IMG/VR virus record: IMGVR_UViG_3300045391_005857
From: an uncultured virus (IMG/VR IMGVR_UViG_3300045391_005857)
Taxonomy: Duplodnaviria > Heunggongvirae > Uroviricota > Caudoviricetes
Reading direction: 5' to 3' (one strand)
DNA: 57,257 nt
Under the pieces are notes generated by a model. That model had not been told where the DNA came from and ran no database searches. It was given only the letters and a program-made list of their open reading frames with translations. This document shows, piece after piece, positions 6,013 through 53,224 of this stretch. The position numbers were made by a program, and so were the translations under genes. The first letter of the stretch is position 1. The number at the start of each line of letters is the position of its first letter.

Positions 6013-6276
6013 ATGGAAATGCAAGAACTAGGCCCGGTCAAGCTGACGCAAAAGCTGCGAGATCACGTGCGGGCCACCCGCGGCGACGAGACGGCGGATT
6101 GCATCGCTAATTACGAGGTGGCGATCTTACGGATTGCCGGCCCGCGTTTTTCGCTCACGTTCCCCGGCTTACCGACTCAGCTTAACTTCGACCGGCAAGT
6201 CCAGCACCACGATGCGGCGATCGTGCTAGACGGTGCTCCGCGGGATTTTGATCTATTGACCGTCGCTGCCGATTGA
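6013..6276 (+). CDS. hypothetical protein (87 aa)
   Basis: AGGAG RBS upstream. Confidence 0.65.
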   Translation: MEMQELGPVKLTQKLRDHVRATRGDETADCIANYEVAILRIAGPRFSLTFPGLPTQLNFDRQVQHHDAAIVLDGAPRDFDLLTVAAD

Positions 6277-6300
6277 CAGTTGGATTTCTCTTGTCATAAT
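6273..6300 (+). promoter_or_regulatory. sigma70-like promoter
   Basis: TTGACA-16-CATAAT with extended -10 TG. Confidence 0.7.
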
Positions 6301-6312
6301 TCTGTCATGACA
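6291..6312 (+). repeat. 22-bp operator-like box, copy 1
   Basis: TTGTCATAATTCTGTCATGACA, identical to 10409-10430. Confidence 0.9.
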
Positions 6313-6494
6313 CGGACGCGAAACCGTGTCAGCGTCATTGTGACGCTGTTGCCCCGATCGCCGGAAATCTACCTAGTGCCAAATGGCCTCGGTGGGCGCG
6401 TCCCGGTGATCAAAGGCGATGGTTTAACGATACGCAGCAGCAAGGCAGGCAGTGGTCGGCTGGGTCGGAGCCCTACCGACCGCTGCCCTTTTTT
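6306..6494 (+). ncRNA. structured leader or sRNA of unknown class
   Basis: Stems 6308-15/6324-31, 6330-37/6341-48, 6356-64/6403-11, alternative 6345-52/6434-41, then terminator. Confidence 0.55.
6448..6494 (+). terminator. intrinsic terminator or attenuator
   Basis: GGCAGTGGTCGG/CCGACCGCTGCC 12-bp stem followed by T6. Confidence 0.7.
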
Positions 6495-9110: not shown

Positions 9111-9610
9111 GCTACGACAGCACTAGCGACACGCTCGAACACATCCGCAACGTCAGCGAGCGGCTGTACCACTTCGGCTCCCAACTAGCACTGCGGGCCA
9201 AGCTGCACGACCAGAGCAAGCTCGATACGCCGGAGAAGGAGGCCCTTGACCAGTTTACGCCGCTGCTCAAAGGGTTGACCTACGGCAGCCAGGAGTACAA
9301 GGATGGGCTGGAGAAGAGCGGTCCGGCGATGGACATCTACCTGAAGCATCATTATGCCAACAATCGCCACCACCCGGAGTTCCATGGCGAAAAGGGCGTC
9401 GCCGGCATGACGCTGATCGACCTGGTGGAGATGCTATGCGATTGGCGCGCAGCTACCGAGCGACACGCTACCGGAAACATTCTGCGATCGCTGGAAATCA
9501 ATCGCGAGCGGTTCAAGCTCTCCGACCAGCTTTACGAGATCCTGCTCAATACGGTTAAAGCGCTAGGTTGGGATCAGGCATCGGGCCAAATCTCGCCCGA
9601 CAAGACGTAG
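9107..9610 (+). CDS. HD-like phosphohydrolase (DUF5662-like)
   Basis: H...HDQSK...HHYANNRHHPE...EMLCDW; GGAGG RBS. Confidence 0.75.
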   Translation: MSYDSTSDTLEHIRNVSERLYHFGSQLALRAKLHDQSKLDTPEKEALDQFTPLLKGLTYGSQEYKDGLEKSGPAMDIYLKHHYANNRHHPEFHGEKGVAGMTLIDLVEMLCDWRAATERHATGNILRSLEINRERFKLSDQLYEILLNTVKALGWDQASGQISPDKT

Positions 9611-10140
9611 CCGATCGTGCTCTTGCTGACGTGAAAGCGATCGGCCAGTTTGACAATTGTCGTTTTCTTCGGGGCTGCGTAGGCGGCCCTGATCTTGCGT
9701 ACTTTAGCCGCCGTGAGTTTAGCCCGGCCATTACGTTCGCCGGCGTAGCAGCCGTTGCGGGAGCCGCTTCCGTATGATTTGCGAATGTTCTCAGGCCGCG
9801 TTGTGTAGATCAGATTGCCGGGCTTGTTGTTGCGTTTGTTCTCGTCCTTGTGGTCTACCTCGCAGAATCCAGCAATCGGCCCACGTCCGGGATGCAGCGG
9901 CAACGGCGGCGGCCCGTTAAACGCAACGGCCACCAGGTGATGGACCTTCTTAGAGAACGTCTTGCCATCTTTACGCAGGTTGACGACCAGATAGCCGCCC
10001 CGTTTGGCGACTTGTAGCTTGCGTATCTTCCCTTGTTGTCGTCTGCCAGCAGGGTCGATGCGATCAACAGACCGTACGCGACCTTTGTCAGAGACTTCGT
10101 AGATGCCGGCAAATCCCGGTGCTGGCAACCATTGCTCCAT
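9574..10140 (-). mobile_element. free-standing NUMOD4-HNH homing endonuclease with C-terminal HTH
   Basis: YEVSDKGRVRS (NUMOD4), VHHLVA..F, VDHKDENKRNN..GNL...EN, AKLT..KVRKIR..LADRFHVSKSTI. Confidence 0.9.
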
Positions 10141-22385: not shown

Positions 22386-22805
22386 GTGTCGAGCAATTTC
22401 AAGCTGGGCGTCAGCGCCATGCAGGCGGCGTGCGATGCGATCGTCGATTTGGTCGATCCGGGCGGACCCGGGCTGTTGAAGATTTATAGCGGCTCGCCGC
22501 CGGCTACGCCGGCTACCGGCGCTACTGGTACATTGCTCGCGACGCTGACGTTCTCGGCGACGGCCTTCGGCAGCGCGAATTCATCTGGTACCGCGACGGC
22601 CAATTCGATCACTTCGGATACCAATGCCGATGCGTCGGCTGACGCGGGGTATTTTCGAGTTGTGACTGCGGGCGGTACAGTCATTTTTCAAGGGACCGCC
22701 GGTAACTCCGGCGACTCGCCCGATATGACTTTCGACAACAAAAGCATCGTGGCGGGTGGTACTGTAGCGTGCTCGGCCATGACCCTGACTGTGCCGACGC
22801 AATAA
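22386..22805 (+). CDS. probable virion structural protein
   Basis: GLLKIYSG.PP...TGTLLATLTF...AGYFRV...IFQG pattern recalls small phage tail/head proteins. Confidence 0.7.
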   Translation: MSSNFKLGVSAMQAACDAIVDLVDPGGPGLLKIYSGSPPATPATGATGTLLATLTFSATAFGSANSSGTATANSITSDTNADASADAGYFRVVTAGGTVIFQGTAGNSGDSPDMTFDNKSIVAGGTVACSAMTLTVPTQ

Positions 22806-31999: not shown

Positions 32000-32959
32000 C
32001 TACTTCTTGCTGTTCTGGATGTACTCGGTGACCCGGTTGACGTGCCCGATCTGACTGGGGTGCGTTACGATCTCCAGCAGCCGGCCCTTGCTCTTGGGCT
32101 TGTAGATGCTTTCGTGGGTCTTGCTGCACTGCTCCTTCTCGCCGCCGATCGCCAGCTCGCCGCGGCCCTTCAAGGGCACGCCGCAGGCGTGGCAGTGAAA
32201 GCGCGCTTGCTGCTCGAAGGCCGCCATCGGCTGATTCCACCAGCCCGGCGTAACCGCCAGGCCCGTGTCCGGATAATCGGGCTCCTCCTGGTGCAGCATC
32301 GCCATCGCGCCGGCGATCTCGCAGAAGTAGCCCCGCAGCTCGCCGCGGAAGACGCCGATCATCGCCGACCAGTATTGGTTGACGTCACACTCGCCGATCA
32401 GCTTCCAGCGATTCTCCTCGGTGTTGGGGACACCGCCGGGCAAGACCTCCATGTCCTGCATGGCGTAGTACGGCGAAGCGTGCCGCGAATCGTCGGTGAC
32501 GCCGACGGGCCGGGCTTCGGGCCAGTCGCGGCGGAACTCTTCCAACGCCTCCTGGTCGAGGTGGACGTTGATGTTGGAGACGTGCGGGTTGAACGTCTCC
32601 CGCGCGATCGCGCCGTTGCCAAAGAGCTTGTTGCACCACAGCCCCCGTCGCTCGAACGGGATATACCGCTGCATGATCTTGCAGAGCTGCTCGAACTGCG
32701 GGTGCAACGCGGGGTTGCCGCCGAACACACCCACGACGCCGAAATAGTCCTGCAAGCTCTGGCAGGCGACTTCAAATTGTTCGACCGTGATTCGGCCCGG
32801 CTTGCCGCCGAGGTTCGAGGCCTGCGTGCAGCCGAAGCAAGCCTTATCGCAGCTCCGCGTCACCCAGATTTGTAGGACTCCCTGGCGCCACACTGTCGGG
32901 CGGCGATCCCTCGGGGACTTCATCGTGGGGGGTAGGGGCAGCATTGGCATCCTTTCCAT
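32000..32959 (-). CDS. radical SAM protein
   Basis: VTRSCDKACFGC (CxxxCxxC), FGGNPALHP, C-terminal Cys; start uncertain. Confidence 0.85.
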   Translation of the reverse strand: MERMPMLPLPPTMKSPRDRRPTVWRQGVLQIWVTRSCDKACFGCTQASNLGGKPGRITVEQFEVACQSLQDYFGVVGVFGGNPALHPQFEQLCKIMQRYIPFERRGLWCNKLFGNGAIARETFNPHVSNINVHLDQEALEEFRRDWPEARPVGVTDDSRHASPYYAMQDMEVLPGGVPNTEENRWKLIGECDVNQYWSAMIGVFRGELRGYFCEIAGAMAMLHQEEPDYPDTGLAVTPGWWNQPMAAFEQQARFHCHACGVPLKGRGELAIGGEKEQCSKTHESIYKPKSKGRLLEIVTHPSQIGHVNRVTEYIQNSKK

Positions 32960-34109
32960 AATTGAGCCGGAGTCGTTCGATCTCGGCCGCCAACTCGCGG
33001 CCGCGACGCCGGTAATCATAGAACGCCTGGGCCCTCTTCGCGAAGTCCTCTTGTTTGTCCTTCTCGTAAGTGTCGGCCGTATGGCGGATCAGCTTGGAGA
33101 GGGCGTGCAGCGGGATGTCGCTCGATATCCGGATCAAATTGCCCTCGATCTCCGGCAAAACGTCGATCTCCGGCAGGTTCGTGATGACGCGGCAGCCGCA
33201 GGCCGTGGCCTCGATTAGCTTGCGGAGGGCATAGCCCAGCCGCGAAGCGGTGCAGATCGCAACCTTGTAGTGCGTCAGCGCGAACAGGTAGTTGTCGGTG
33301 TCGGGGCCGTTGGCGGCATAGCCCGGGAACGACCGCGTTTCCACCGGCAGGTACTGGGCGTTAGCGTACAGTCGATTGCGGAGCGGGTAATAATCGCGGG
33401 CCGCGTTGCCCGAGAGCAGGCACGTGCGGTCGCGGGGGTTGGCGCCGTAAGGCGGGATCTTCGCCGGATCGACCGAGTGCCAGGTGCGGATGAGGTGCTC
33501 GCGGCGGATGTACGGCGCTAGCGCACAGACAATGTCCGGGTGGTAGTAAGCAATCCAGCCGTGATAGCCCATCTGCTCGGCGGCGTCGCGATGGTAGTGC
33601 GGCTCCTGGTGGGCGTCTTTGCAGATCGTGAGCTTGAAAATGTCCGGGCGATGCGACAGGTGGTGGTAGTTCTGAAAGCCGGCGTCTTTGTTCAGGCAGG
33701 TGCTGGAGCCCGGGTCCCACTCGCGCTTGTCTTGCACGATGAGCGTCCGCACCGGGGCGGCGAGGTTGAGGATTGTCGGCACGTCGCGTTGATCGTCCGG
33801 ATAGCCAGGTCCCCATAGGCGATAGCCGGCCAATGCTAAGCCTTCTTGCATCTGCCAGCCTTCGTCGGTCATGTGCTGGGCGAAGCTGTGTAGCCCCAGC
33901 ATGTGTAAGCCGCCCTCCTGCGGAATGTATTCCGGCGGATCGAGCCGCACCACCGGCGCCGTCGCTCCGCGACGTCGGCGGAGCACACGTCGCTTCAATA
34001 GTTTACGGGCTGTTGCCTGGGTACGGTTGCGGATGGACTTTCGTTGTACCGGGCCGGGCGTCGCGGCCCGTCGGATCGTGTTGACGACACGACGGTTTTG
34101 ATTGGTCAT
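32844..34109 (-). CDS. GT-B-like glycosyltransferase
   Basis: YPLR, Y..AL..YKVAICT, RKLIEATACGCRVIT. Confidence 0.7.
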   Translation of the reverse strand: MTNQNRRVVNTIRRAATPGPVQRKSIRNRTQATARKLLKRRVLRRRRGATAPVVRLDPPEYIPQEGGLHMLGLHSFAQHMTDEGWQMQEGLALAGYRLWGPGYPDDQRDVPTILNLAAPVRTLIVQDKREWDPGSSTCLNKDAGFQNYHHLSHRPDIFKLTICKDAHQEPHYHRDAAEQMGYHGWIAYYHPDIVCALAPYIRREHLIRTWHSVDPAKIPPYGANPRDRTCLLSGNAARDYYPLRNRLYANAQYLPVETRSFPGYAANGPDTDNYLFALTHYKVAICTASRLGYALRKLIEATACGCRVITNLPEIDVLPEIEGNLIRISSDIPLHALSKLIRHTADTYEKDKQEDFAKRAQAFYDYRRRGRELAAEIERLRLNYGKDANAAPTPHDEVPEGSPPDSVAPGSPTNLGDAELR

Positions 34110-34663
34110 TTTGGTTTGATGAAGAACCAGCTCTCGATCTCTTCCGCCGATGTCTTGTACGGCGTGAGCTGATGTTGTTCAGCGAAAGCGATAACGGCCG
34201 GGCGGACTTCGTCGGCCCACTCCCATTCGTTGAGATCATGGCCCGACATTACGCCGCCAGGTCGAACCCTGGTCCACCAGCTTTGCATATCTTCTTCGAC
34301 GAAGCGGCGGATGTGATTACCGTCGATATGTACGAAATCCAGCGCGGCGGGCTCGATCTGGGCGGCTGCCTCGGTCGAGAGCATTCGCCAGAGTCGCACA
34401 CGGTTGGCGAAAGGCGCTAGCGTATCGACGGCTGCCTGATAGTCTGCATCGCGATCGCCGTAAGCTACCATGTCGTGATAGCTGGGCAGCTTTCGCCAGG
34501 GGTCCACGCAGATCAGCTCGCCGGGCCAGGCATTAAGAAACAGCGCGGCGTACTCGCCGCGATGGGTGCCAACCTCGACCGCTGTGCCGGTGAGGTCCCG
34601 TGTCCGCAGGAAACTACCAAAATCGACACGGGTCGGTAGTTCGGGGTGAGCGACAATGTCCAT
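34106..34663 (-). CDS. class I SAM methyltransferase (Methyltransf_24-like)
   Basis: VEVGTHRG, VDPW, DFVHIDGNH, PGGVMSGHD. Confidence 0.9.
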   Translation of the reverse strand: MDIVAHPELPTRVDFGSFLRTRDLTGTAVEVGTHRGEYAALFLNAWPGELICVDPWRKLPSYHDMVAYGDRDADYQAAVDTLAPFANRVRLWRMLSTEAAAQIEPAALDFVHIDGNHIRRFVEEDMQSWWTRVRPGGVMSGHDLNEWEWADEVRPAVIAFAEQHQLTPYKTSAEEIESWFFIKPK

Positions 34664-34710
34664 GTCGCTTGTTATAGTGTCACCGACGCGCTGTTTGCTA
34701 GGGAGTTTCT

Positions 34711-35055
34711 ATGCTGTTAGCGATCGACTTCGATCGGACGTTCATGCTGGACCCGCCCCTCTGGGGCGCTTTTCTGAAAGCGTTAGTCCTCAGCGACCAC
34801 CGGGCCATCGTCGTGACTTGTCGTACGGCACGGGAGGACAATTACGAGCTGATTCGCGATGCGCTGGCGCGTGCCGGGGCGTTGCATTCCGTGGAAGATA
34901 TTTTGTGCACCAGCCATCGACCGAAGCGCACTTTCGCAGTCGCCTGCGGGTATCAGGTCGATGTTTGGGTGGATGACATTCCCGAAGTTATCGGAGCCCG
35001 CGACGAGGCCGAAGTGCGCGAGATCGAGGCCCGTTTCCACGTCGCCTCGACGTGA
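34711..35055 (+). CDS. HAD-family phosphatase
   Basis: AIDFDRT, VVTCR, K, VWVDD. Confidence 0.8.
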   Translation: MLLAIDFDRTFMLDPPLWGAFLKALVLSDHRAIVVTCRTAREDNYELIRDALARAGALHSVEDILCTSHRPKRTFAVACGYQVDVWVDDIPEVIGARDEAEVREIEARFHVAST

Positions 35056-35101
35056 CGTTCGGCGACATGCTATCTTACGCCCACCTCCGGAGACCTGCCT
35101 G

Positions 35102-35287
35102 ATGCCCACACAGACTGCTCCGCGTGAAATGGTCGTCAACCCTGCCGACTTTCAGCTCTTGCTGACGTCGCGCCGTAACATGATCCGCGAGAATCGCCGG
35201 CACCAAGGTTTGTTGGGTCTCCGCGATCGCGACACCGGTGAATTATTCTTGACCGAGGAGCGGAAGCTCAAACCGGTAGCTGTATGA
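35102..35287 (+). CDS. hypothetical protein
   Basis: GGAG RBS, ATG 35102. Confidence 0.55.
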   Translation: MPTQTAPREMVVNPADFQLLLTSRRNMIRENRRHQGLLGLRDRDTGELFLTEERKLKPVAV

Positions 35288-35484
35288 GCGACAATCTGGA
35301 CGTCGAATTCATGTCCCGCAGCGACCTCAAGGCTGAGGTGACCAAGCTCCGCGGCGAGAACAAAGGTCTGGTACTTAGAAACCGGGTGTTGCGGGCTCGC
35401 CCCGATCTACCGGTCGAACGAATGGATTTCCACGACGCCCTCGCCAGGGCTCAGGAAGAATTGGCAAAACTCCGTGGCAGCTAA
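35284..35484 (+). CDS. small coiled-coil protein
   Basis: ATGA-coupled. Confidence 0.6.
   Translation: MSDNLDVEFMSRSDLKAEVTKLRGENKGLVLRNRVLRARPDLPVERMDFHDALARAQEELAKLRGS
35370..35382 (+). repeat. dispersed 13-mer, copy 4
   Basis: Exact copy inside a CDS (VLRN). Confidence 0.9.
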
Positions 35485-36154
35485 TCATTGTCCGATCTGC
35501 GACTTCAAAAGCGGCTTTAAGAACTTTCGTGGCCGCGAGCGTGCTCAGTGTCCGACCTGCGGCTCACTGGAGCGGCACCGGCTCGTCTGGTTGTACTGGC
35601 GAGAGCAGACAACGCTGTTCGACGGTCAGCCCAAGCGGATGTTGCACTTCGCCCCCGAGGCTTGCTTCCGCGGCCGGCTGCCAAACGTCCCCGGCATCGA
35701 CTACCTCAGCGGCGATCTTAATCCGGGCTCCGTGAAAGCGATGCGGAAACTTAACCTGACCAGGCTGGACCTACCCAGCGAGACGTTTCAGGTGTTCCAT
35801 TGCTCCCATGTGCTGGAGCACATCCCCGACGACGCGGCGGCGATGCGCGAGCTGTACCGCGTGCTGGCTCCGGGCGGTTGGGGCATTATTCAGGTGCCGC
35901 TACGCCGGGGTGAGCATACCTACGTCGATCCCAATGCGAGGACCGCCGAGCAGCGGACGCGAGCCTACGGCCAGTACAACCACGTGCGAATTTACGGTGA
36001 ATTGGACCTTGCCCCGGCGCTGCGGATGGCCGGTTTTACGGTGGAGCCGACGCAGTACGGGCATGATCTGCCGTGGCAGATTGCCGGGAAATACGGGGTA
36101 GATCGTGACGAACTGCTGTTTTTCTGTTACAAAAATGGCCACGCGGAATCTTAA
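35474..36154 (+). CDS. Zn-ribbon plus class I SAM methyltransferase
   Basis: CPIC...CPTCGSLERHR, LHFAPE, CSHVLEHI, RVLAPGG. Confidence 0.88.
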   Translation: MAANHCPICDFKSGFKNFRGRERAQCPTCGSLERHRLVWLYWREQTTLFDGQPKRMLHFAPEACFRGRLPNVPGIDYLSGDLNPGSVKAMRKLNLTRLDLPSETFQVFHCSHVLEHIPDDAAAMRELYRVLAPGGWGIIQVPLRRGEHTYVDPNARTAEQRTRAYGQYNHVRIYGELDLAPALRMAGFTVEPTQYGHDLPWQIAGKYGVDRDELLFFCYKNGHAES

Positions 36155-37172: not shown

Positions 37173-39515
37173 ATGTCCCAAGCGTTCTCGCTGCTGGGTC
37201 CGATGAACACTCGGCCGTACGCGATCGGCGAACGGCCGGGCGGCTCGTACATCCCCACGATCCCACTGCTCTCGGGGCAAACTGGGTGGGATAGTCTGAC
37301 TCCGTATTACACGTCGCGTGCGCTGGATACGCATCTTGAACATTTCGGGCATGGCGGCCCGCGGGTGACGGATCACCCGCTGACGAAGAAGGCCAATGGC
37401 TTGATGACGTTGACGCGCGGTCTGTCCAAGCCCGGCGTGCCGCCGATCGATCCCAAGGTCTACGCCCGGCTCTTCCCGAAAATCGATCTCAGCAAGTCCC
37501 GCTCGACCGGCCCTGGTTTCTGGGATCGCGCCAAGGCAGTAGCTGCCCATCCGGCGACGCCCGGTGTTGTAGGTGCTGGCGCTGTCGGCGGTAGTGGGCT
37601 TGCTATGTTTGGCGGTGCTTTAGCTGCAGGTAACCCTGTCGCGGCGCCACAAGAAGGTGTTGGTGAAGGTAGCGGCCTGCCCAAGGGGACGCCGGATACG
37701 ACATCCGGCGAGACCGGCCCAATCCCAGGCCCGGGCCTCCCGAAGATCGAACTGCCGGAGAGTTTGCAGAAGCTGGTCGGCGGTGTTGGCGATCCTGGAC
37801 AGATCGCTCAGTTCGCCGGCAAGAACTGGGGAGCGTTGCTCGGTGGCGGGATGGGTCTCGCCGGTCTCGCTTATTTGCTCAACAAGCGTCGGCAGGCCAA
37901 GCAGCGGGAGAAGACGTTAGCGTCGATGCCATTCGTGATGAAGTCGGCGGAGGACGTCCGCGTCTTTGCGTTGGAGCATCCGCTCGTGGCCGGCTTTCTG
38001 CGACGCTGCGGGGAAGCCAAGCTCAACGATCGACAAATCATTACCAAGATTGCGGCTGCCTGCCGCGTCGATCCGTCGATTAAAGCAGCCTTCGACGCGG
38101 CCGGTACGTTGTTTGATCAAAGACAGCCGCCACAGTCGCCGAACCCGATGATTGCCAAAGCACCGCAGCCGAATCTAGCTGGCGACGAGCTGGCTAAGGC
38201 GCGCGCAAATGTGCCCCCGCCTGGTTCTCCGCAGGGCGGCAAGTTGGTGGGCTCACCCAGTCTGCCCGATAAGCCAATGAATGGTCCCAGCTTGTACGGC
38301 CATTACGCCGACCAGGCGTTCAATCCAAATCACGATTGGAGCCAGGACCCCACCGACGCACCGGGCGACGCAGCGTTGCGAACCGGTGCCCGTGTCAGCG
38401 GCGCTGTCGGTGGCGCTGCCGGCCTGGCCGCTGGCGGCATTGCAGCGACCCCGCTGGCGACGCTGCCGGCAACATCAGCACTCGGTGCGGCCGGCGGTGC
38501 TGCAGCACGTACTGCCGGCGGGCTGGCTGGTCAAGTTGCTCTCATCGGAGGCGCTCAAGCTATCGGACAAGGTATTCATGATTCACTCGGCGGTAATCAG
38601 CACATGGATATGGGCATGGGCGAAATGCCGCCAGCGGTCGACGGCAACGGGCAGCCGATCACTACGCCCGAGCAAGCTAAGCAGCACGTAGCTGAGACGG
38701 GGCAGAAGATACAGGAGGCCGCGGCTCAAAATCCCGAAATCAAAAATACTCTGGCTGAGGCGAATAAAACGCAGCAAGCGCCGCCCAGTATGACGGCCGG
38801 CGCCGCACAGAATTTATTAAACGAGCCGCACATCAAAGCCATGGGGGCAACATTGCAGGATGCGTGGCAGCACGTCTCCGCAATGCCGTGGCAACAGCAA
38901 GCACCGCTCTGGCTCGGCCTGGGGCTCGGGACGTACGGATTGCTGCATGGTCTATTCGGCAAAGAAGGCGGGATCGGCGATTGGCTGATGGGGCTGGTAG
39001 GTCTTGGCACTGCGGCTGGTATGGCAGCCCGCGGCGGTGCGTTTGGCCAAGGGGCCCAGCAAGCCGTACATGGTGCTGTTGGCGGAATCGGTAACTGGTT
39101 AAACGGAATGTTGCAAGGCAAAGCTGGTCCGCAGCAAGCTGGTGGGCAACCAGCAGCGACACTGTCGGAGGCTCCCAAGGTGGAGCCGAGCGCTATGCAA
39201 GGCGTCATGGCGAATCATAGCTGGCTGACACCGCATATCGGCGGCGGGGATGATCCGCACGCACTCGATAAAGGCGATCAAGCCGCGATTCTTAAAGCAT
39301 TTGCCGCTGGACAAATCAAACCAGAGCAAATGCAGGCTCTCGTACAAGAGCCTGCGCTCAGGCCGCTTATCCAGCACGGCGTCGATAGCGAGCTAGATAC
39401 GCAACGGAGCGGGCCAATAGCGCGGATGACCAACTGGGGCAGAGCGCTTACTCGCGAGCAGGCTTTACAGCACGCGGAGCCGTGGCAGCGGCAGCTTTAT
39501 GACTGGACGCGCTAA
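37173..39515 (+). CDS. Gly/Ala-rich 780-aa protein with hydrophobic helices, possible ejection/internal virion protein
   Basis: GxxxG-rich segments; KKAN, KSAE and KIAA motifs; GGAGG RBS. Confidence 0.7.
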   Translation: MSQAFSLLGPMNTRPYAIGERPGGSYIPTIPLLSGQTGWDSLTPYYTSRALDTHLEHFGHGGPRVTDHPLTKKANGLMTLTRGLSKPGVPPIDPKVYARLFPKIDLSKSRSTGPGFWDRAKAVAAHPATPGVVGAGAVGGSGLAMFGGALAAGNPVAAPQEGVGEGSGLPKGTPDTTSGETGPIPGPGLPKIELPESLQKLVGGVGDPGQIAQFAGKNWGALLGGGMGLAGLAYLLNKRRQAKQREKTLASMPFVMKSAEDVRVFALEHPLVAGFLRRCGEAKLNDRQIITKIAAACRVDPSIKAAFDAAGTLFDQRQPPQSPNPMIAKAPQPNLAGDELAKARANVPPPGSPQGGKLVGSPSLPDKPMNGPSLYGHYADQAFNPNHDWSQDPTDAPGDAALRTGARVSGAVGGAAGLAAGGIAATPLATLPATSALGAAGGAAARTAGGLAGQVALIGGAQAIGQGIHDSLGGNQHMDMGMGEMPPAVDGNGQPITTPEQAKQHVAETGQKIQEAAAQNPEIKNTLAEANKTQQAPPSMTAGAAQNLLNEPHIKAMGATLQDAWQHVSAMPWQQQAPLWLGLGLGTYGLLHGLFGKEGGIGDWLMGLVGLGTAAGMAARGGAFGQGAQQAVHGAVGGIGNWLNGMLQGKAGPQQAGGQPAATLSEAPKVEPSAMQGVMANHSWLTPHIGGGDDPHALDKGDQAAILKAFAAGQIKPEQMQALVQEPALRPLIQHGVDSELDTQRSGPIARMTNWGRALTREQALQHAEPWQRQLYDWTR

Positions 39516-39649
39516 CGGCCGGTGAGCCCGGCATAGAAGGCCAGCCAGCAGAGATAGGCTATCAAGCCCCAGAGCTGGTAGCGGCAATTGGTAAGACGTT
39601 TCTCCAGGATCGCGACGCGGTCTTCTAGCGGCAATTCAGGTGTTGCCAT
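39512..39649 (-). CDS. small membrane protein (45 aa, not in ORF track)
   Basis: GGAG RBS; MATPELPLEDRVAILEK...TM. Confidence 0.5.
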   Translation of the reverse strand: MATPELPLEDRVAILEKRLTNCRYQLWGLIAYLCWLAFYAGLTGR

Positions 39650-39738
39650 GGCGGCCAATACTCCGGTGTTTTAATGTTCGCCCATACGCGCAATCGTAAT
39701 CTCGACAAGCTCCCGAAGCCATAGTCTCAAAAACCACA

Positions 39739-39767
39739 TTGCCGCCACTTCGGGGGACTGATAAATT
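39739..39767 (+). promoter_or_regulatory. sigma70-like promoter for the structured RNA
   Basis: TTGCCG-17-TAAATT with TG extension; predicted +1 near 39774. Confidence 0.6.
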
Positions 39768-39774
39768 CATGGGC

Positions 39775-40015
39775 CTGGCATCGGAGCGCTGTCTTGGCCG
39801 CCCTGGCACGGGCTGGTGAAGACCGCCGGGGCCTACTATGAGGGTAGCTCCTGGCGTAGGAAAGCTCGTTTGGTAAACGCCGTCTGACGAGCGAGGACGG
39901 AGCGACGAAAGTGCCTTAATGTCGTCGCGGTGGGTGTGGGTGGCGCAAGTCATCCATGTCCGGTACCCGGGGGAAAGGGGATCTCCGGGGGCTTACGGCG
40001 GCGCTCCGGTGCCAG
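39775..40015 (+). ncRNA. unclassified multi-branched structured RNA (~240 nt)
   Basis: 19-bp closing helix with 3 G-U pairs, GCAA-capped 13-bp hairpin, several further stems, possible loop-loop pairing. Confidence 0.75.
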
Positions 40016-40076
40016 AGTTTGACGAAGCTGCTGCGTGGAGACGATACCACGGATTACTCCAAGGAGGGATGTAACG

Positions 40077-40394
40077 ATGCAGAGCAGCGACTGGCTCACA
40101 ATTGCCTTGTGGGGCTTGGGTGCACTGGGCACCGTGGTCGCAACTCTGATGGGTGTGCTGGCCTATTTCCTCAAGCGCCTCATCGATCAACTCGACAGCA
40201 CACGCCGCCAGGTGTTTTCGCTGCGAGATGAACTTCGCTCTATGCACGGGAAGTTCAAATTGTTCAAGATTGAGGTGCGCTTGCTGCTAACCAAGGCCGG
40301 CGTCAACACTCGCGAGATCGAAGAACTCGTCAAGCTGGCTGACGACGACGAGATCGCTGGTCCCTTGGACGACGTTGAGCTGCTGCCACCATGA
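40077..40394 (+). CDS. single-TM plus coiled-coil protein
   Basis: AAGGAGG RBS, N-terminal TM. Confidence 0.7.
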   Translation: MQSSDWLTIALWGLGALGTVVATLMGVLAYFLKRLIDQLDSTRRQVFSLRDELRSMHGKFKLFKIEVRLLLTKAGVNTREIEELVKLADDDEIAGPLDDVELLPP

Positions 40395-43300
40395 ACGATA
40401 TCTACTATTACGACGTTGGTGTAACGGTCGGCGCGATCTATCAGGCGTTACTGCGACGACCATCGGTCGAGAAGATTGCGGCCACGGCCGAACTGTCCTA
40501 CGGTCTGAAGGGACAGCTCTACAAATCGAGTGCCGGCTGGATTTTGCTGACGGTGCCGAATCATCTCGGCCGCGGGGCTTTCGATGCCCTCGGGGAGACC
40601 GGCATCGAGCTGCCGCTTAACAGCAAGGGCATCTACAACGCGCATATCTCGGTCATGCGACCCGAGGAGGTCGAGACGATCCCCGGCGGGGCCGGCGCGA
40701 TCAGCGAGCGGGGGCATGACTTCGCCTACACGCTAGGTCCGGTACGATCGGTGAAGCCGCACGGCTGGAGCGACGTCGCGAAGGTCTGGTACATCGAAGT
40801 TCACAGCCCTCAACTAGAACAACTGCGGAGAAGCTATGGGTTATCGTCACGACCGCGCGAAAACAAACATCGCTTCCACATCACGATCGCTATAAGAAAG
40901 TCGCAGGTCCTCCGGGAGAATGACAAGTCCAAAGCGGCTTCGTTCATTCACTACCCGGAGGAGATGTTTCGCGGTCGACTGGCGACAGCGGGACCTCCGC
41001 AGCTCGCCGAAGATGCTTTCCCCTGTTGTGATGCGGAGGCGGAGACTGGCGAGACGATCAAGACGGGGGAGGAAGCGATCGCGGCGCCAAAGGGTGAACT
41101 GTGCCCGTATTGTCAAGCGCGTTTAGAGTACAACCCCGACGATCAGACGTGCAACCATTGCGGCAAAGAGTATCCGCCGGAGAAGCTGGCGGCAGAGTCT
41201 GCCGGGCTCCATCCGGCAGTTGCACAGACAGTGCAACAGCATGGACAGATAGGTCCTGGCTTCCCCTACCAAAGCACAATCGGCCACGGGAAAGTTGGTC
41301 CCTTGATGCATTCGGACGCCGGGCTGGATTTTTTGCACCACGTACATGGCGATGCCGCCCGCGCTGGTTTGGGGCAGTCGTTACGCCGTAGCGGTTACGA
41401 CCCGACCAGCGAGCAGGCAACTAACGTCGGGCAGCAATTGTTCAATCAGCGATGGCCAACACAATTACCGCCGGTGCAATCAGGCAATGTTAGTCAGGCC
41501 GCTGGTGTCGGTGTGCAATTAGCCCCCGGTAGTTTTGAGCAGTCTTTGTACGGCATGCCTGCACACGGCATACTTAATCACGAGTTGGAGCATGTGCGAC
41601 AGGATCGCGTACCTGGCGGCGGGGCCGGGGTAGAGGTTGGGCCTAGTCTCGGTGATTTGGTATTCGCGAACGAGACGGCGAGACAGGTTACCGGGCAGCC
41701 TACGCAGCATCAGGTGACTTTTCCGAGTGGAAAAGAACACGACATCAACTGGATGACGGATCAAGCTAAGCAGCACGGGTATTTCGGCGGGAAGTCAATG
41801 GATGACTTATTGGCGACGCCGGCCGGTCAGCAGTGGTTACAGCAGGCGATTGGCGAGAAGGGGGCAGGTCTGCTGCCGTCGGTACACCTCCAGCCGCAAC
41901 AGCAACGCGTCTCGGACGAGATCAAACACCAACGCGTCCGTAAGCTCCTCTACCACTCCCTCGGCTCAGGCAAGACGCTGTCGTCTATCGCGGCCGCGGA
42001 ATCGGCTGGCGAGCCCTACCTGGCGACTGTGCCCGCGGCGCTGCGGCCGAACTTCAAGAACGAGCAAGCCCGCTGGACCGATCAACAAACGCCATCCGAG
42101 GTCGAGAGCTATTCCGCCCTCGCCAAGGGCGTCCCCCAGCAACACTTCGGCACCGCGATCTTCGACGAAGCCCAGCGACTGCGGAATGAGAACTCGCTAC
42201 AGACACAGCACGCTAAAGAAGTTGCGCGGCAGACGCCCAATCTGCTCATGCTCTCCGGCACTCCGATCGTGAACGGGCCAGGCGACTTCGCCCCGCTGGC
42301 CGAGATGCTCACGGGCAAGCCGCAGGACTCCAAGACGTTTGAGCAAACCTACGTCGGTCAGAAGACCGTGCGGCCTAGTCTGATGGCCCGCTTCCGCGGC
42401 GTGCAGCCGGCGAAGGTGCCGGTACTTAGAAACCAAGACCAGCTCAAAAAGCTGCTCGCCGGCCACGTCGATTACCACGCGCCGGCGAAGCCCGACGTCG
42501 AGCAAGTCGAGGAGCGTTATGAGACGCCCATGTCGGGCGAGCAGACGAAACTCTACCAGGCTTTCTGGAATCAGTTGCCGTGGGTGCTCCGCTGGAAGCT
42601 GCAGCACGAGTTCCCGCTCTCCAAGCAGGAGATCGGTAATCTATCCTCGTTCCTGGCCGGCCCTCGTCAGGTTTCCTTGTCAACGCTGCCCTTTATGCGC
42701 GGCCGTCGCGACCCGTACAAAGCCTTCCAACAATCACCCAAGCTCCAGCGGGCGATGCAGCTCGCTGAAGAGACGCTCGGCAGCAATCCCAACGCCAAGA
42801 TCGTCGCGTTCTCAAATTTCCTCGAAGCGGGCCTGCAGCCGTACGCAGCGGCGTTGGCTGCTAAGAAAATCCCCTATGCCATCTTTCATGGCGGCATGAA
42901 TGATGCCGAGCGCAAGCGGGCCGTCGCCGACTACAACGCTAATCGTATCCGGGCACTCCTCATCGCTCCGGCCGGCGCCGAGGGCATCTCCCTCAAGCAT
43001 ACCAACGCGCTGCAGCTCCTCGACCCGCACTGGAACGAAGCCCGCCTCGATCAGGCGATCGGCCGCGGCATCCGCTTCGATTCGCACACCGATCTACCGC
43101 CCGAGCAGCGGAAGGTGCGGGTGCAACGGTTCTTGTCGACGCTGCCGCCAGGCGTGCTATCGCGGCTGTGGCGGTACATCATTCAAACCAAGCCCAACAC
43201 CGAAAAAAGCAGCCCGGGTGTCGACCTGTACCTGGAGCACCGGGCCCGGAAGAAACAGGAGCTGAATAACCAGTTCCTCAATCTGCTCAAGGAGATCGGA

Positions 43301-43576
43301 TCACCCAAAGCCGCGGCCGCGACTGGCAGTTACTACCTGGACGCTGTTCAGCAAACGCCAGTCAGCTATGATTCATCCCAAGGTGCATTGCAGAACCTGC
43401 TAATGCACCTGGGCAAGGTCAGGGCTCGTGGCGATCGGGCGATCACAGAAGCCGAGAACTGGGACAGCTTGCAGGACGCCGCGGACCCAAATCGGTCACT
43501 TCTCAGGTTGCAGAGGCAACTAGCAGGCGAACCACCACTCGTCTCCCACCCTCTGGATAGATTGCTGCATGCTTAA
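40391..43576 (+). CDS. multidomain 2H phosphoesterase / Zn ribbon / HExxH / SNF2-family helicase
   Basis: HISV and HITI; CPYC..CNHC; HELEH; HSLGSGKT, DEAQ, SGTP, EGISL, QAIGRGIRFDSH. Confidence 0.88.
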   Translation: MNDIYYYDVGVTVGAIYQALLRRPSVEKIAATAELSYGLKGQLYKSSAGWILLTVPNHLGRGAFDALGETGIELPLNSKGIYNAHISVMRPEEVETIPGGAGAISERGHDFAYTLGPVRSVKPHGWSDVAKVWYIEVHSPQLEQLRRSYGLSSRPRENKHRFHITIAIRKSQVLRENDKSKAASFIHYPEEMFRGRLATAGPPQLAEDAFPCCDAEAETGETIKTGEEAIAAPKGELCPYCQARLEYNPDDQTCNHCGKEYPPEKLAAESAGLHPAVAQTVQQHGQIGPGFPYQSTIGHGKVGPLMHSDAGLDFLHHVHGDAARAGLGQSLRRSGYDPTSEQATNVGQQLFNQRWPTQLPPVQSGNVSQAAGVGVQLAPGSFEQSLYGMPAHGILNHELEHVRQDRVPGGGAGVEVGPSLGDLVFANETARQVTGQPTQHQVTFPSGKEHDINWMTDQAKQHGYFGGKSMDDLLATPAGQQWLQQAIGEKGAGLLPSVHLQPQQQRVSDEIKHQRVRKLLYHSLGSGKTLSSIAAAESAGEPYLATVPAALRPNFKNEQARWTDQQTPSEVESYSALAKGVPQQHFGTAIFDEAQRLRNENSLQTQHAKEVARQTPNLLMLSGTPIVNGPGDFAPLAEMLTGKPQDSKTFEQTYVGQKTVRPSLMARFRGVQPAKVPVLRNQDQLKKLLAGHVDYHAPAKPDVEQVEERYETPMSGEQTKLYQAFWNQLPWVLRWKLQHEFPLSKQEIGNLSSFLAGPRQVSLSTLPFMRGRRDPYKAFQQSPKLQRAMQLAEETLGSNPNAKIVAFSNFLEAGLQPYAAALAAKKIPYAIFHGGMNDAERKRAVADYNANRIRALLIAPAGAEGISLKHTNALQLLDPHWNEARLDQAIGRGIRFDSHTDLPPEQRKVRVQRFLSTLPPGVLSRLWRYIIQTKPNTEKSSPGVDLYLEHRARKKQELNNQFLNLLKEIGSPKAAAATGSYYLDAVQQTPVSYDSSQGALQNLLMHLGKVRARGDRAITEAENWDSLQDAADPNRSLLRLQRQLAGEPPLVSHPLDRLLHA
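42421..42433 (+). repeat. dispersed 13-mer, copy 5
   Basis: Exact copy inside the helicase CDS (VLRN). Confidence 0.9.
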
Positions 43577-43945: not shown

Positions 43946-44227
43946 GTGACAATGTCTGGTTACTGGACTATGCTACGCAGCGGGCGGTTTAGTTCCGCCC
44001 GCGTTCGTGCCCGCCGGAAAAAGTATGCTGTCGGTCCTCGCGACCGACGGCGGGCTGCCCGCGACACACGAGGTTACACGCGGCGATGGGCTCAGAAGCA
44101 ACTACGCTTAGCCAACAAGCGACACCAGGACGCGATCGCCGCCTGGCTCTATGGTCCCTTCTCTTCGGGCCCGCCGCCGCGTCCGATCGAGAGCTGGGCC
44201 TGGCTGAACCGGTTGAAGACGGCGTAA
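43946..44227 (+). CDS. basic hypothetical protein
   Basis: Fills gap; overlaps the next ORF. Confidence 0.45.
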   Translation: MTMSGYWTMLRSGRFSSARVRARRKKYAVGPRDRRRAARDTRGYTRRWAQKQLRLANKRHQDAIAAWLYGPFSSGPPPRPIESWAWLNRLKTA

Positions 44228-45408
44228 AGCTCGCCGACTGGCAACAGGTGCCCGATCTCGTCCGCGAACGGTACAAAGAAGCGGCCGACGTCAAGAAGGT
44301 AGTCAGCCGGCTGCTCAAGCATCTGCCCAAAGAGATGCCCGACTATGGGCACGTCTTTTGGAACCCGAAGACGAAAGAGCTGTGGGCCGTGCTCAGCGAC
44401 AGCGAGCCGCAGTCCACCCATCAGCGCTGGCACAACGCGCTCAAAGCCGTCAACGGCGTCAGTGCCGTGCGGACAGAGGCCGAGTATGGTCCACATCGCG
44501 ACCCTGATTGGATTCGCGTCAAGAAAGCCGCCGCGCTCGAATATCTCAACAAGCCGTTCCAGATGGCCGGCGCGCTCACCGGCGGGCCGAGCCCAATGAC
44601 CAATGCGATCGTCGGCGGCCTCTTGGCCGGCGGAGCCGGTTATGCCGGCGGGGCGATCGCCGAACAACTGTTACCGCGGCGCTACGTGGAGCGTGGCCGC
44701 TTGCGAAAGGTACTTGGCTTGCTCGGCCTGGGGCTAGGCACTTTACCGGGGCTGTGGGAGGGCTCGGTGAATTCGCTGAATTCCAACCAGGCCGGCAAGC
44801 CTTTAGGTTGGCGAACGGCGATCACGCCGACGAACAACGTACCGCTCAATCCCCATACTCAGTTCCAGAGCAATCTATTACGGGGTGGACACTACAAAGG
44901 TGGCGAGGCGATCGACTGGGACACGCTCGACGCGGAGCTGGAGGGTTGCCCGCTGGCTCCGGAGTTCTTTTTGAAAGCGGCTGCCGGTTTCGCCGCCTCG
45001 CTCGGCCCTGCCGATTACAACCTGCGGTCGGTGCCGATGGACGCGTTCAATCAAGCGATCTGGAACGACGTCAGCAAAGGCATCAGCGCTCGCAACAACC
45101 CCTACGGCACCAAAGATCCGTGGGGCGACAACTCACAATCACTGCACACGCCACCGCCGCTGGGCGCAGCTACGGCGGGGCTCGTGGCCGGTATCGGCGC
45201 TCAATACGGGAATCCGTCGCTTCTTTCTCCTCAGCACTTCATCAGTGGTCTAGCGGCGGCCGGCGTCGATCTCGTAACAGCTCGCTTGGCAGGGGGCGTG
45301 CTCGGTGTGCTCGGCGGGCTCACGCCCGCTGCGCAAGAACAACTCCAAAATGCAGGGCTCTGGTCGGGTTTGATTCGCGGCGTAGCTAGCTCGGTGCTGG
45401 GCGTCTAG
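44086..45408 (+). CDS. Gly/Ala-rich probable virion protein
   Basis: KLAD, KKAAA and LKAAA motifs; true start may lie downstream. Confidence 0.65.
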   Translation: MGSEATTLSQQATPGRDRRLALWSLLFGPAAASDRELGLAEPVEDGVKLADWQQVPDLVRERYKEAADVKKVVSRLLKHLPKEMPDYGHVFWNPKTKELWAVLSDSEPQSTHQRWHNALKAVNGVSAVRTEAEYGPHRDPDWIRVKKAAALEYLNKPFQMAGALTGGPSPMTNAIVGGLLAGGAGYAGGAIAEQLLPRRYVERGRLRKVLGLLGLGLGTLPGLWEGSVNSLNSNQAGKPLGWRTAITPTNNVPLNPHTQFQSNLLRGGHYKGGEAIDWDTLDAELEGCPLAPEFFLKAAAGFAASLGPADYNLRSVPMDAFNQAIWNDVSKGISARNNPYGTKDPWGDNSQSLHTPPPLGAATAGLVAGIGAQYGNPSLLSPQHFISGLAAAGVDLVTARLAGGVLGVLGGLTPAAQEQLQNAGLWSGLIRGVASSVLGV

Positions 45409-52437: not shown

Positions 52438-53224
52438 TCCGCAGATCATGAAGAAGCAAGAGCTGCTCCAGTCGCTCTTGCATTTGGGCTTAGCAGGCGC
52501 GGGCATCGGTGCCGGCATTCGTGCCGGCACCGGGCTGCACCAGCTGCTCATCGCCGGCAAACCTAAGCCGGCCACGACGCTCCCTACGCCGGACACGGTC
52601 CCTGTGCCGGTGCTCCGGCCCGATCCGACCGAGATGAGCGAGCCGGATGACGGCGTGGAGGGCGAGCCGTCGATCGCCAAGATGGCGGAGAAGCTGGCGG
52701 CCGAGCAATGGCTGCCGCAGCCGATCGCCGATGCGATGCCGAATCTTTCCAACTCGGGGCACCCTTTTGCTTCCTGGCAAGGCATGCCGGCCGCGGTGGG
52801 TGTCGGCACGCTGGGCGTCGCCGGCGGCTACTCGCTCATGGACTGGTTGGCCAAGCATCGTCGCAAGGCCGAGCAGAAGGCCGACGTCGACGACGCCCGC
52901 GACGAGTTCCGCAGCGCCCTGGCCAATGAATACAACACGGCCATGTCGGCTAAACAGGCTAACGAGCTGGACGCTGCCTTCGACGAGTGGCAGAAGCAAG
53001 CCAATGGTCGGCAGCAACTTGCAGACATCGGCAACCTCGCCGGCGGGATGTATGGTGCAGCCGCGCTGGCTCTCGGCGGCGGCACGGCTTACATGACGTA
53101 TAAAGCGATGAAGGAACGCAGTGCGCAGAAGCTCTTGCAGAAAGCAATCGCCGCCCGCGCGCGACAGCGATCCACGCCGCAACCGATCTACGCCGTGCCG
53201 ACCAATGACCTTGCGACTGTGTAA
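52313..53224 (+). CDS. Gly/Ala-rich probable virion protein
   Basis: KQAL, KMAEKLAA and KQAN x2 motifs; three hydrophobic helices. Confidence 0.65.
   Translation: MQSQSLSPPPSLPSPSRLAPPRSLACHTPSSVGQTTVKQALDPQIMKKQELLQSLLHLGLAGAGIGAGIRAGTGLHQLLIAGKPKPATTLPTPDTVPVPVLRPDPTEMSEPDDGVEGEPSIAKMAEKLAAEQWLPQPIADAMPNLSNSGHPFASWQGMPAAVGVGTLGVAGGYSLMDWLAKHRRKAEQKADVDDARDEFRSALANEYNTAMSAKQANELDAAFDEWQKQANGRQQLADIGNLAGGMYGAAALALGGGTAYMTYKAMKERSAQKLLQKAIAARARQRSTPQPIYAVPTNDLATV

Follow-up and report, generated by a model that had tools for sequence, protein, structure and literature searches.

What does the 427-nt gap between a small minus-strand open reading frame (ORF; coding ends at position 39650) and a plus-strand 105-aa ORF encode in the genome of an uncultured tailed phage, and how is it related to the genes that follow it? 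The stretch of DNA analyzed here, IMG/VR record IMGVR_UViG_3300045391_005857, is 57,257 nt long and is referred to below as the window; coordinates are positions in it unless another record is named. The window is phage-like and mostly dark, with a virion protein encoded at 22386-22805. A preliminary description, made from the sequence alone, placed in this gap an unclassified structured RNA of about 240 nt. This proved to be the case: the folded RNA covers positions 39772-40018 of the plus strand (~245 nt) and consists of multiple helices closed by the pairing of its ends. It belongs to an undescribed family whose pseudoknotted RNAs are ~200 to 250 nt long.

Fold stability and the search for relatives

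The minimum free energy (MFE) of positions 39770-40020 of the plus strand is -134.8 kcal/mol, a value reached by none of 200 dinucleotide-preserving shuffles (mean, -109.1; standard deviation, 4.7; z score, -5.51). The reverse complement of this interval folds with an MFE of -95.0 kcal/mol (z score, -3.19). Because the minus strand is so much less stable, the G-U pairs of the RNA are strand specific, in agreement with their initial attribution to a plus-strand RNA. The whole window was also scanned in 250-nt segments with a step of 125 nt, a grid that does not contain the exact RNA interval. None of the 457 plus-strand segments reached -134.8 kcal/mol; the best one scored -131.2 kcal/mol, with a GC fraction of 0.70, and is richer in GC than the RNA interval. 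Another well-folding stretch, the intergenic region at 6030-6430, which carries a promoter-like site (TTGACA-N17-CATAAT) and several hairpins, was dropped from consideration: with a z score of -1.26 it is not unusually stable, and the covariance model R2, described below, finds no match in it.

Searches by sequence did not lead to relatives. A blastn search of GenBank phages returned no match to either the window copy or a major-clade copy, the window sequence used alone as a query for blastn and nhmmer retrieved no relatives, and single-protein locus searches of viral contigs gave no match. A metagenome scan recovered only an identical copy, on a contig that lies wholly inside the window, and a 1.3-kb fragment. 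Since these searches failed, relatives were sought via the 2H-SAK phosphoesterase encoded downstream of the RNA. Seventeen homologs of its N terminus were aligned, and 80 IMG/VR loci were fetched, mostly from contigs of 150 to 235 kb. A covariance model built from the single window sequence had full-length plus-strand matches in 17 of the 80 loci (E values from 1.5e-10 to 0.032), all of them upstream of the 2H-SAK match, and a profile made from 14 of these 17 detected the RNA in 69 of the 80. A second model, R2, was run on 75 sources; in 68 of them it had exactly one full-length match, and it matched nowhere else. The absence of matches to model R1 in five whole records, a run that included no positive control, is uninformative. 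The RNA is a single-copy feature of these genomes and is common in a clade of uncultured phages of ~200 kb, which occur in lakes and soils.

The association with the 2H-SAK gene was also recovered by a search that made no use of the protein. A scan of the entire IMG/VR with a 23-nt degenerate motif, covering hairpin H1 and the linker that follows it, yielded 81 stretches, one per contig, and the full RNA was found in all 81. A 2H-SAK gene lies on the same strand 617 to 1217 nt downstream in each of the 74 loci with enough DNA; the other 7 end at contig ends. A motif match in one bacterial metagenome-assembled contig was dismissed as a chance hit because that contig does not contain the RNA.

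Comparison with known RNAs gave uniformly negative results. At gathering thresholds, none of the 4227 models of Rfam 15 matches anywhere in the window, and relaxing the E value to 10 over positions 39400-40400 produces only a chance snoRNA match, located outside the RNA. Rfam finds only tRNAs in the loci of 13 relatives at gathering thresholds, and only neighboring tRNAs, nothing on the RNA, in eight further members at E values up to 10. ARAGORN detects no tRNA or tmRNA genes in the window; in the relatives' loci it places tRNAs beside the RNA and never on it. Resemblances to RNase P, SRP, cobalamin riboswitches, and the tRNA D-loop have no Rfam support and were dropped. Thus, the comparison with Rfam that the preliminary description proposed as a check leaves the RNA outside every known class. 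No description of the family was found in the papers searched; a large catalogue of IMG/VR RNA motifs of 29 to 151 nt (PMC10690425) may hold fragments of it among its alignments. Within Rfam 15, the GenBank phages, and the literature searched, the family has no known relatives by sequence or structure.

ROOL and GOLLD RNAs are often phage-borne and found near tRNA genes, and they are several hundred nucleotides longer than the RNA described here. They have been reported as large ornate phage-associated RNAs (bioRxiv 10.1101/2024.12.08.627333); they resemble our RNA in having complex conserved folds and an unknown function, whereas the latter differs in its length (~245 nt), its fixed leader position, and the absence of a match to their Rfam models.

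Covariation and architecture of the RNA

The R2-fitted alignment comprises 67 distinct sequences and 83 base pairs. In it, 88.3% of the cells are paired and 79 of the 83 pairs show changes on both sides, a combination not matched in any of 500 shuffles; sliding the partners by 1 to 3 columns lowers the pairing to 36-45%. The collection of homologs that had been suggested as a further check therewith supports a conserved fold. As model-fitted alignments lean towards the model, a structure-blind MAFFT alignment (A8; 62 sequences) was also made. On this alignment, RNAalifold recovers P1, P2, H1, H5, H6, and H7, with compensatory changes in 37 of 43 pairs.

In its overall layout, six hairpins (H1 and H3 to H7) surround a purine-rich junction, P1 is the closing helix, which is long, P2 is a short helix, and the loops of H1 and H5 form a kissing interaction. 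In the MFE fold, the 5' strand of P1 (39772-39793, plus strand) pairs with its 3' strand (39997-40018), which extends by three base pairs the closing helix originally drawn between 39775-39793 and 39997-40015. P1 is also recovered from the MAFFT alignment, and in the R2-fitted alignment all 18 of its pairs have changed on both sides, with 93% of the cells paired; its length across the family varies from 10 to 22 bp. P2 joins 39796-39799 to 39990-39993, as seen in both the covariance model and the R2-fitted alignment (4 of 4 pairs covary; 95% paired). It is followed by H1 (39800-39813), a GCCC-UGGCAC-GGGC hairpin whose stem is paired in 100% of the cells of the R2-fitted alignment; this conserved GCCC/GGGC hairpin replaces the CCCTGGC/GCCGGGG pairing proposed from the single sequence. 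The next segment (39814-39824) is a purine-rich linker with the family consensus GGUUAGG (GGUGAAG in the window), whose columns are nearly invariant in the MAFFT alignment. The small UGG/ACC hairpin that single-sequence folding puts here is paired in only 60% of the cells and was rejected; in the family, the segment is a conserved single-stranded motif.

H3 (39826-39855) is a long hairpin of two helices, in which 12 of 12 pairs covary. In 60 of the 67 relatives its loop contains a GGA (CA-N-GGA-UG), whereas the window's own loop, AUGAG, does not. The relatives do not support the TCCT-GGCGT-AGGA helix that had been suggested inside the RNA. The linker J3/4 (39856-39863) has an unpaired AGGA at 39858 (GGA at 39859) and leads to H4 (39864-39892), a two-part GCUCGU/ACGAGC hairpin in which 7 of 7 pairs covary and the inner helix is paired in only 72% of the cells. 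J4/5 (39893-39901), GAGGACGGA in the window and GGAGGA in the family, displays two unpaired A(N)GGA motifs, AGGA at 39894 and ACGGA at 39897. The GCGACGA/UCGUCGC hairpin H5 (39902-39928) is paired in 97% of the cells (8 of 8 pairs covary), and H6 (39931-39962), which is present in the MFE fold, is a 14-bp hairpin with several G-U pairs and a GCAA loop; its sequence and length vary among family members, yet 15 of 15 pairs covary and 82.5% of the cells are paired. The last hairpin, H7 (39966-39989), is formed by CCCGGGGG and TCTCCGGG (7 of 8 pairs covary; 95.7% paired), and its loop carries AGGGGAUC, which exceeds all other motifs of the family in conservation and in which GGGGA is (nearly) invariant. 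H4 to H7 correspond to hairpins of the preliminary description, and for each of them fold and covariation agree with it.

In the window, the H1 loop GGCAC (39805-39809) can kiss the H5 loop GUGCC (39911-39915), and other lineages have different complementary sequences at the same two loop positions. In the MAFFT alignment, these columns are 95.6% paired, with double changes in 5 of 5 pairs, as against 20-65% pairing in slid controls; none of 500 shuffles equals either the paired fraction or the covariation score. Earlier tests based on the longest complementary run, in which the kissing loops did no better than shuffles, are superseded by this column-wise test. The kiss previously proposed between ACGCC and GGCGT gives way to this covarying one.

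Such data leave little room for the view that the locus encodes no functional RNA and that it folds by chance owing to its GC richness, acts at the DNA level, or codes for protein. GC-rich DNA does fold well (the mean MFE of 250-nt segments of this 57-kb stretch is -93 kcal/mol), and in 48 of the 67 members, 80% or more of the RNA is spanned by open frames. However, the overlapping ORFs show no protein-level similarity and have no protein-level relatives, which bears out the original remark that no convincing ORF covers the RNA and led us to reject a protein-coding reading. In addition, the compensatory changes in the 67 sequences, the conserved G-U pairs with their strand asymmetry, and the covariation seen in the MAFFT/RNAalifold, kissing-loop, and R2-fitted analyses all contradict this view, which we consider extremely improbable. 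The RNA and its family almost certainly exist.

Leader position and neighboring genes

The RNA had also been credited with its own promoter. From sequence only, an extended -10-like element, TG-n-TAAATT (39759-39767, plus strand), ends 4 nt before the closing helix, and a candidate -35 hexamer, TTGCCG (39739-39744, plus strand; 4 of 6 positions match the consensus), lies 17 nt before the -10-like hexamer; transcription is expected to start at about 39772-39775. A simple sigma-70 scan called no promoter at this site, picking up neither TTGCCG nor TG-n-TAAATT. The -10-like element is the part of the claim that the comparison sustains: such a hexamer, counted if its end fell in the interval from 14 nt upstream to 6 nt downstream of the RNA start, is found in 52 of 67 distinct relatives, versus 17% at random positions in the same loci, and 34 of the 67 relatives have the TG extension. 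Ahead of the -10-like element, some 50 to 70 nt upstream of the RNA, some relatives (e.g., L054, L049, and L077) also share a conserved CTCTTTGACAA with a small inverted repeat after it; this motif may be a phage promoter or operator.

At the other end, no consistent terminator follows the RNA. T-runs of at least 4 are found after it in only 8 of 67 relatives, the 15 nt downstream contain 4.0 T residues compared to 3.2 expected, and no terminator-like site was found on the plus strand. P1 combined with a U-run was considered as a terminator and rejected as inconsistent across the family. An ORF of at least 90 aa begins 4 to 69 nt (median, 29) 3' of the RNA in 63 of 67 members. With this ORF so close, no consistent terminator, and a -10-like motif at the 5' end, the RNA therefore represents the extreme 5' end of an operon transcript. 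This is where the comparative data take the list of roles initially left open (ribozyme, decoy, scaffold, or packaging RNA): they point to an operon 5' leader, and nothing was found in support of packaging.

In the window, the first gene of the operon is the 105-aa ORF (40077-40394, plus strand), which encodes one N-terminal membrane helix followed by a coiled coil, has a weak match to phrog_462, and is preceded by a strong Shine-Dalgarno (SD) region, AAGGAGGGAUG (40060-40076, plus strand), with two A(N)GGA motifs, AAGGA and AGGGA, at 40062-40070. It is followed by the 2H-SAK gene (40391-43576, plus strand), so that the RNA does lie upstream of a 2H/SNF2 fusion, as was stated at the outset; the 1061-aa product combines the 2H-SAK phosphoesterase, a zinc ribbon, and an SNF2 helicase (Pfam IDs PF22547, PF00176, and PF00271). 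In most loci, the gene right after the RNA encodes a ~120-aa multi-pass membrane protein to which the window's 105-aa protein is not homologous; 2 of 5 such ORFs scanned from the major clade have weak matches to holin PHROGs (E value of about 4e-4). A one-helix coiled-coil protein directly follows the RNA in the window and in L003, whereas L018 and L016 have no small ORF, and the RNA leads straight to the 2H-SAK start. The window and the main clade do not have the same upstream genes, and the C-terminal domains of the SAK proteins vary among SNF2, ligase, and NUDIX. The 2H-SAK gene is the constant downstream partner of the RNA, and the small membrane ORF is variable and sometimes absent. The reverse does not hold: two nearly complete SAK-bearing records, L004 and L011, contain no RNA at E values up to 1, in a search in which the positive control, L054, was found. 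In the L008 record, ~5.4 kb separate the RNA from the SAK gene downstream, and an array of six tRNA genes (L008 221-1600) is located between them.

Several other features of these loci deserve mention. A tRNA-Asn (GTT) gene is often located between the membrane ORF and the 2H-SAK gene (L051 3794-3868; L054 3797-3870; likewise at about 3800-3920 in L077, L061, L049, L065, and L067). In the main clade, an actin-like protein (Volactin; Pfam ID PF25216; E value of 2.6e-60) is encoded two genes upstream of the RNA, e.g., at L029 1486-2523, and ORFs of ~344 aa occupy the same place in many loci. The 440-aa protein encoded at 44086-45408 in the window is conserved 3' of the SAK gene in 53 loci and has no match in Pfam, NCBIfam, or PDB. 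TROVE/Ro60-like genes are found in the L018 record (202.6-203.7 kb, 18 kb from the RNA) and in the L012 record (55.0-56.0 kb). Elsewhere in the window, there are an HNH endonuclease gene (9574-10140, minus strand), a weak radical-SAM-like ORF with three methyltransferase-domain ORFs on both strands (32000-36154), and a giant ORF with regions resembling the beta subunit of multisubunit RNA polymerases (phrog_24349 and phrog_3295), which starts at 53224 and runs off the window end at 57255.

CsrA and the competing readings of the RNA

Many of the phages that carry the RNA also encode a member of the CsrA family. The Pfam CsrA domain (PF02599) scores above the cut-off in 4 of 5 and in 15 of 24 related records in two separate sets. 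It is found in 19 of the 27 RNA-bearing records, including all 17 that are at least 90% complete and 2 of the 10 that are less complete, counts that take no account of relatedness; the eight records without CsrA include two at 82% completeness. The two SAK-bearing records that lack the RNA also lack CsrA (0 of 2), and these two genomes may represent a single lineage. Four records encode CsrA no more than ~1.3 kb away from the RNA: in L003 the gene is divergent and located 160 nt upstream of the RNA, and in L015, L016, and L017 it is found just past the 2H gene. In the 57-kb window itself, which is part of a 119-kb contig, no CsrA was detected by tblastn with 4 phage CsrAs or by an HMM search of 1163 frames (best E value, 1.7). 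CsrA homologs have been found in GenBank phages and IMG/VR contigs by Campa et al. in 2021 (PMC8450108), who propose manipulation of host regulation and, in the part of the paper used here, name no phage RNA partner; the relatives of our phage carry such RsmA/CsrA genes too, and what differs is that here a conserved phage RNA co-occurs with them.

The RNA itself displays possible binding sites. Unpaired GGA motifs are conserved in the H3 loop (the 60 of 67 members mentioned above), at two places in J4/5 (40 and 33 of 67), in J6/7 (38 of 67), and in the H7 loop (66 of 67); in the window they are found in J3/4, J4/5, the H7 loop, and the SD region of the next ORF. There is no overall enrichment, with 6.5 GGA per RNA versus 5.6 in shuffles, and only 26 of 63 leaders have a GGA near the next start codon. 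The motif bound by CsrA is A(N)GGA, and in targets with several sites one of these lies over the SD sequence (PMC4066749); the window leader has this arrangement, with several A(N)GGA sites, one of them over the SD.

Our preferred reading, which we put forward tentatively, is that the RNA may act as a cis-acting regulatory 5' leader of the membrane-ORF/2H-SAK operon that is read by a CsrA-family protein. According to this proposal, the unpaired GGA motifs displayed by the fold would be candidate docking sites for CsrA, CsrA dimers bound to them would set the translation or stability of the downstream genes, and in related phages the CsrA would be supplied by the phage itself. The RNA resembles CsrA/RsmA leaders and CsrB/RsmZ sponges in its unpaired A(N)GGA/GGA motifs in loops and linkers, here also over the SD, and in the CsrA-family gene of related phage genomes; its 5' position is that of a leader. 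It differs from the Csr/Rsm RNAs in being phage-borne and tied to a 2H-SAK gene, in matching no Rfam Csr/Rsm model, in the lack of GGA enrichment, and in its conserved seven-helix fold with a long P1 and a kissing loop. Known CsrA leaders and sponges need neither a seven-helix pseudoknotted fold nor a P1 of 10 to 22 bp, which counts against CsrA as the reader.

A different part for CsrA is envisaged if the RNA is a stand-alone, trans-acting stable RNA that is cut or terminated after P1 and serves as a sponge or timer for phage or host CsrA; CsrB and RsmZ are the CsrA sponges of bacteria. The -10-like motif of its own, the long P1 sealing both ends in the manner typical of stable RNAs, the conserved and unpaired GGA motifs, the co-occurrence with phage CsrA, and the single copy per genome would all suit such an RNA, and tRNA genes are found in the same transcription units, so that processing enzymes are active there anyway. 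However, Csr/Rsm sponges are characterized by dense GGA motifs well above chance and a discrete, terminated transcript, whereas here there are only ~4 to 6 GGA sites, occurring at the near-shuffle frequency given above, T-runs follow the RNA in just the 8 of 67 members, and an ORF begins within 4 to 69 nt in 63 of them. A free-standing sponge appears somewhat unlikely on this evidence. It is unlikely, too, that the leader is a ligand-sensing riboswitch of a new class or a self-cleaving ribozyme that gates the SAK operon. In the former case, the ligand could be a nucleotide-derived signal degraded by the 2H or NUDIX enzymes; in the latter, the 2H enzyme could process a 2',3'-cyclic phosphate end produced by self-cleavage. 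The RNA keeps strictly to its place in the 5' UTR, the enzymes encoded after it are 2H, NUDIX, or ligase fusions, and the junction and loop nucleotides are conserved amid freely covarying helices, alongside a kissing loop, a pattern of conservation that is seen in aptamers and ribozymes. Against this, no Rfam riboswitch or ribozyme model matches at E values up to 10, no alternative terminator/antiterminator and no SD-sequestering helix were found, and P1, at 10 to 22 bp, looks constitutively stable, unlike the P1 helices of riboswitches. The conservation is aptamer-like, the P1 is long, and the plus strand lacks a terminator-like site.

The strict adjacency of the RNA and the 2H-SAK gene suggests one more option, namely, that the RNA could be a partner, scaffold, or substrate of this end-processing enzyme, by analogy with Y RNAs: YrlA and YrlB belong to the rsr-rtcBA RNA-repair operon. 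Y RNAs are likewise structured noncoding RNAs with paired 5' and 3' ends and are encoded beside RNA end-processing enzymes. The adjacency holds in 74 of 74 loci, is direct in L018 and L016, and has persisted while the upstream genes, the small ORF, and the C-terminal domains of SAK were exchanged; the two ends of the RNA are held next to each other by P1, and a tRNA-Asn gene is often present in the same locus. However, the two nearly complete genomes mentioned above have SAK genes without the RNA, and all the loci come from related phages, so the adjacency may reflect inherited synteny. The RNA also differs from Y RNAs in having no detectable tRNA-like module and no match to an Rfam Y RNA model, and only 2 of 5 near-complete records with the RNA encode a TROVE/Ro protein, at a site that is not adjacent to it. 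An identification as a Y RNA was rejected on these grounds, and we regard the broader role as a partner of 2H-SAK as distinctly improbable. A more far-reaching proposal, for which we also hold out little probability, is that a phage operon for RNA end processing and counter-defense is gated by a new class of sensing or catalytic RNA, either a riboswitch for a nucleotide-derived signal or a self-cleaving ribozyme, with phage CsrA as a second input, or that the RNA is a dedicated partner of phage CsrA.

The operon that begins with this RNA encodes a multidomain nucleic acid end-processing enzyme. Whichever of these readings applies, the RNA is an attractive candidate for structure determination on account of its seven-helix junction and its covarying kissing loop. 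If it is read by a phage CsrA, large phages would carry their own posttranscriptional regulator together with its cognate RNA; if it is a dedicated partner of the phage-encoded CsrA, the two would constitute the first Csr-type protein-RNA pair carried by a virus; and if it is a sensor or a ribozyme, it would represent a new class of functional RNA.
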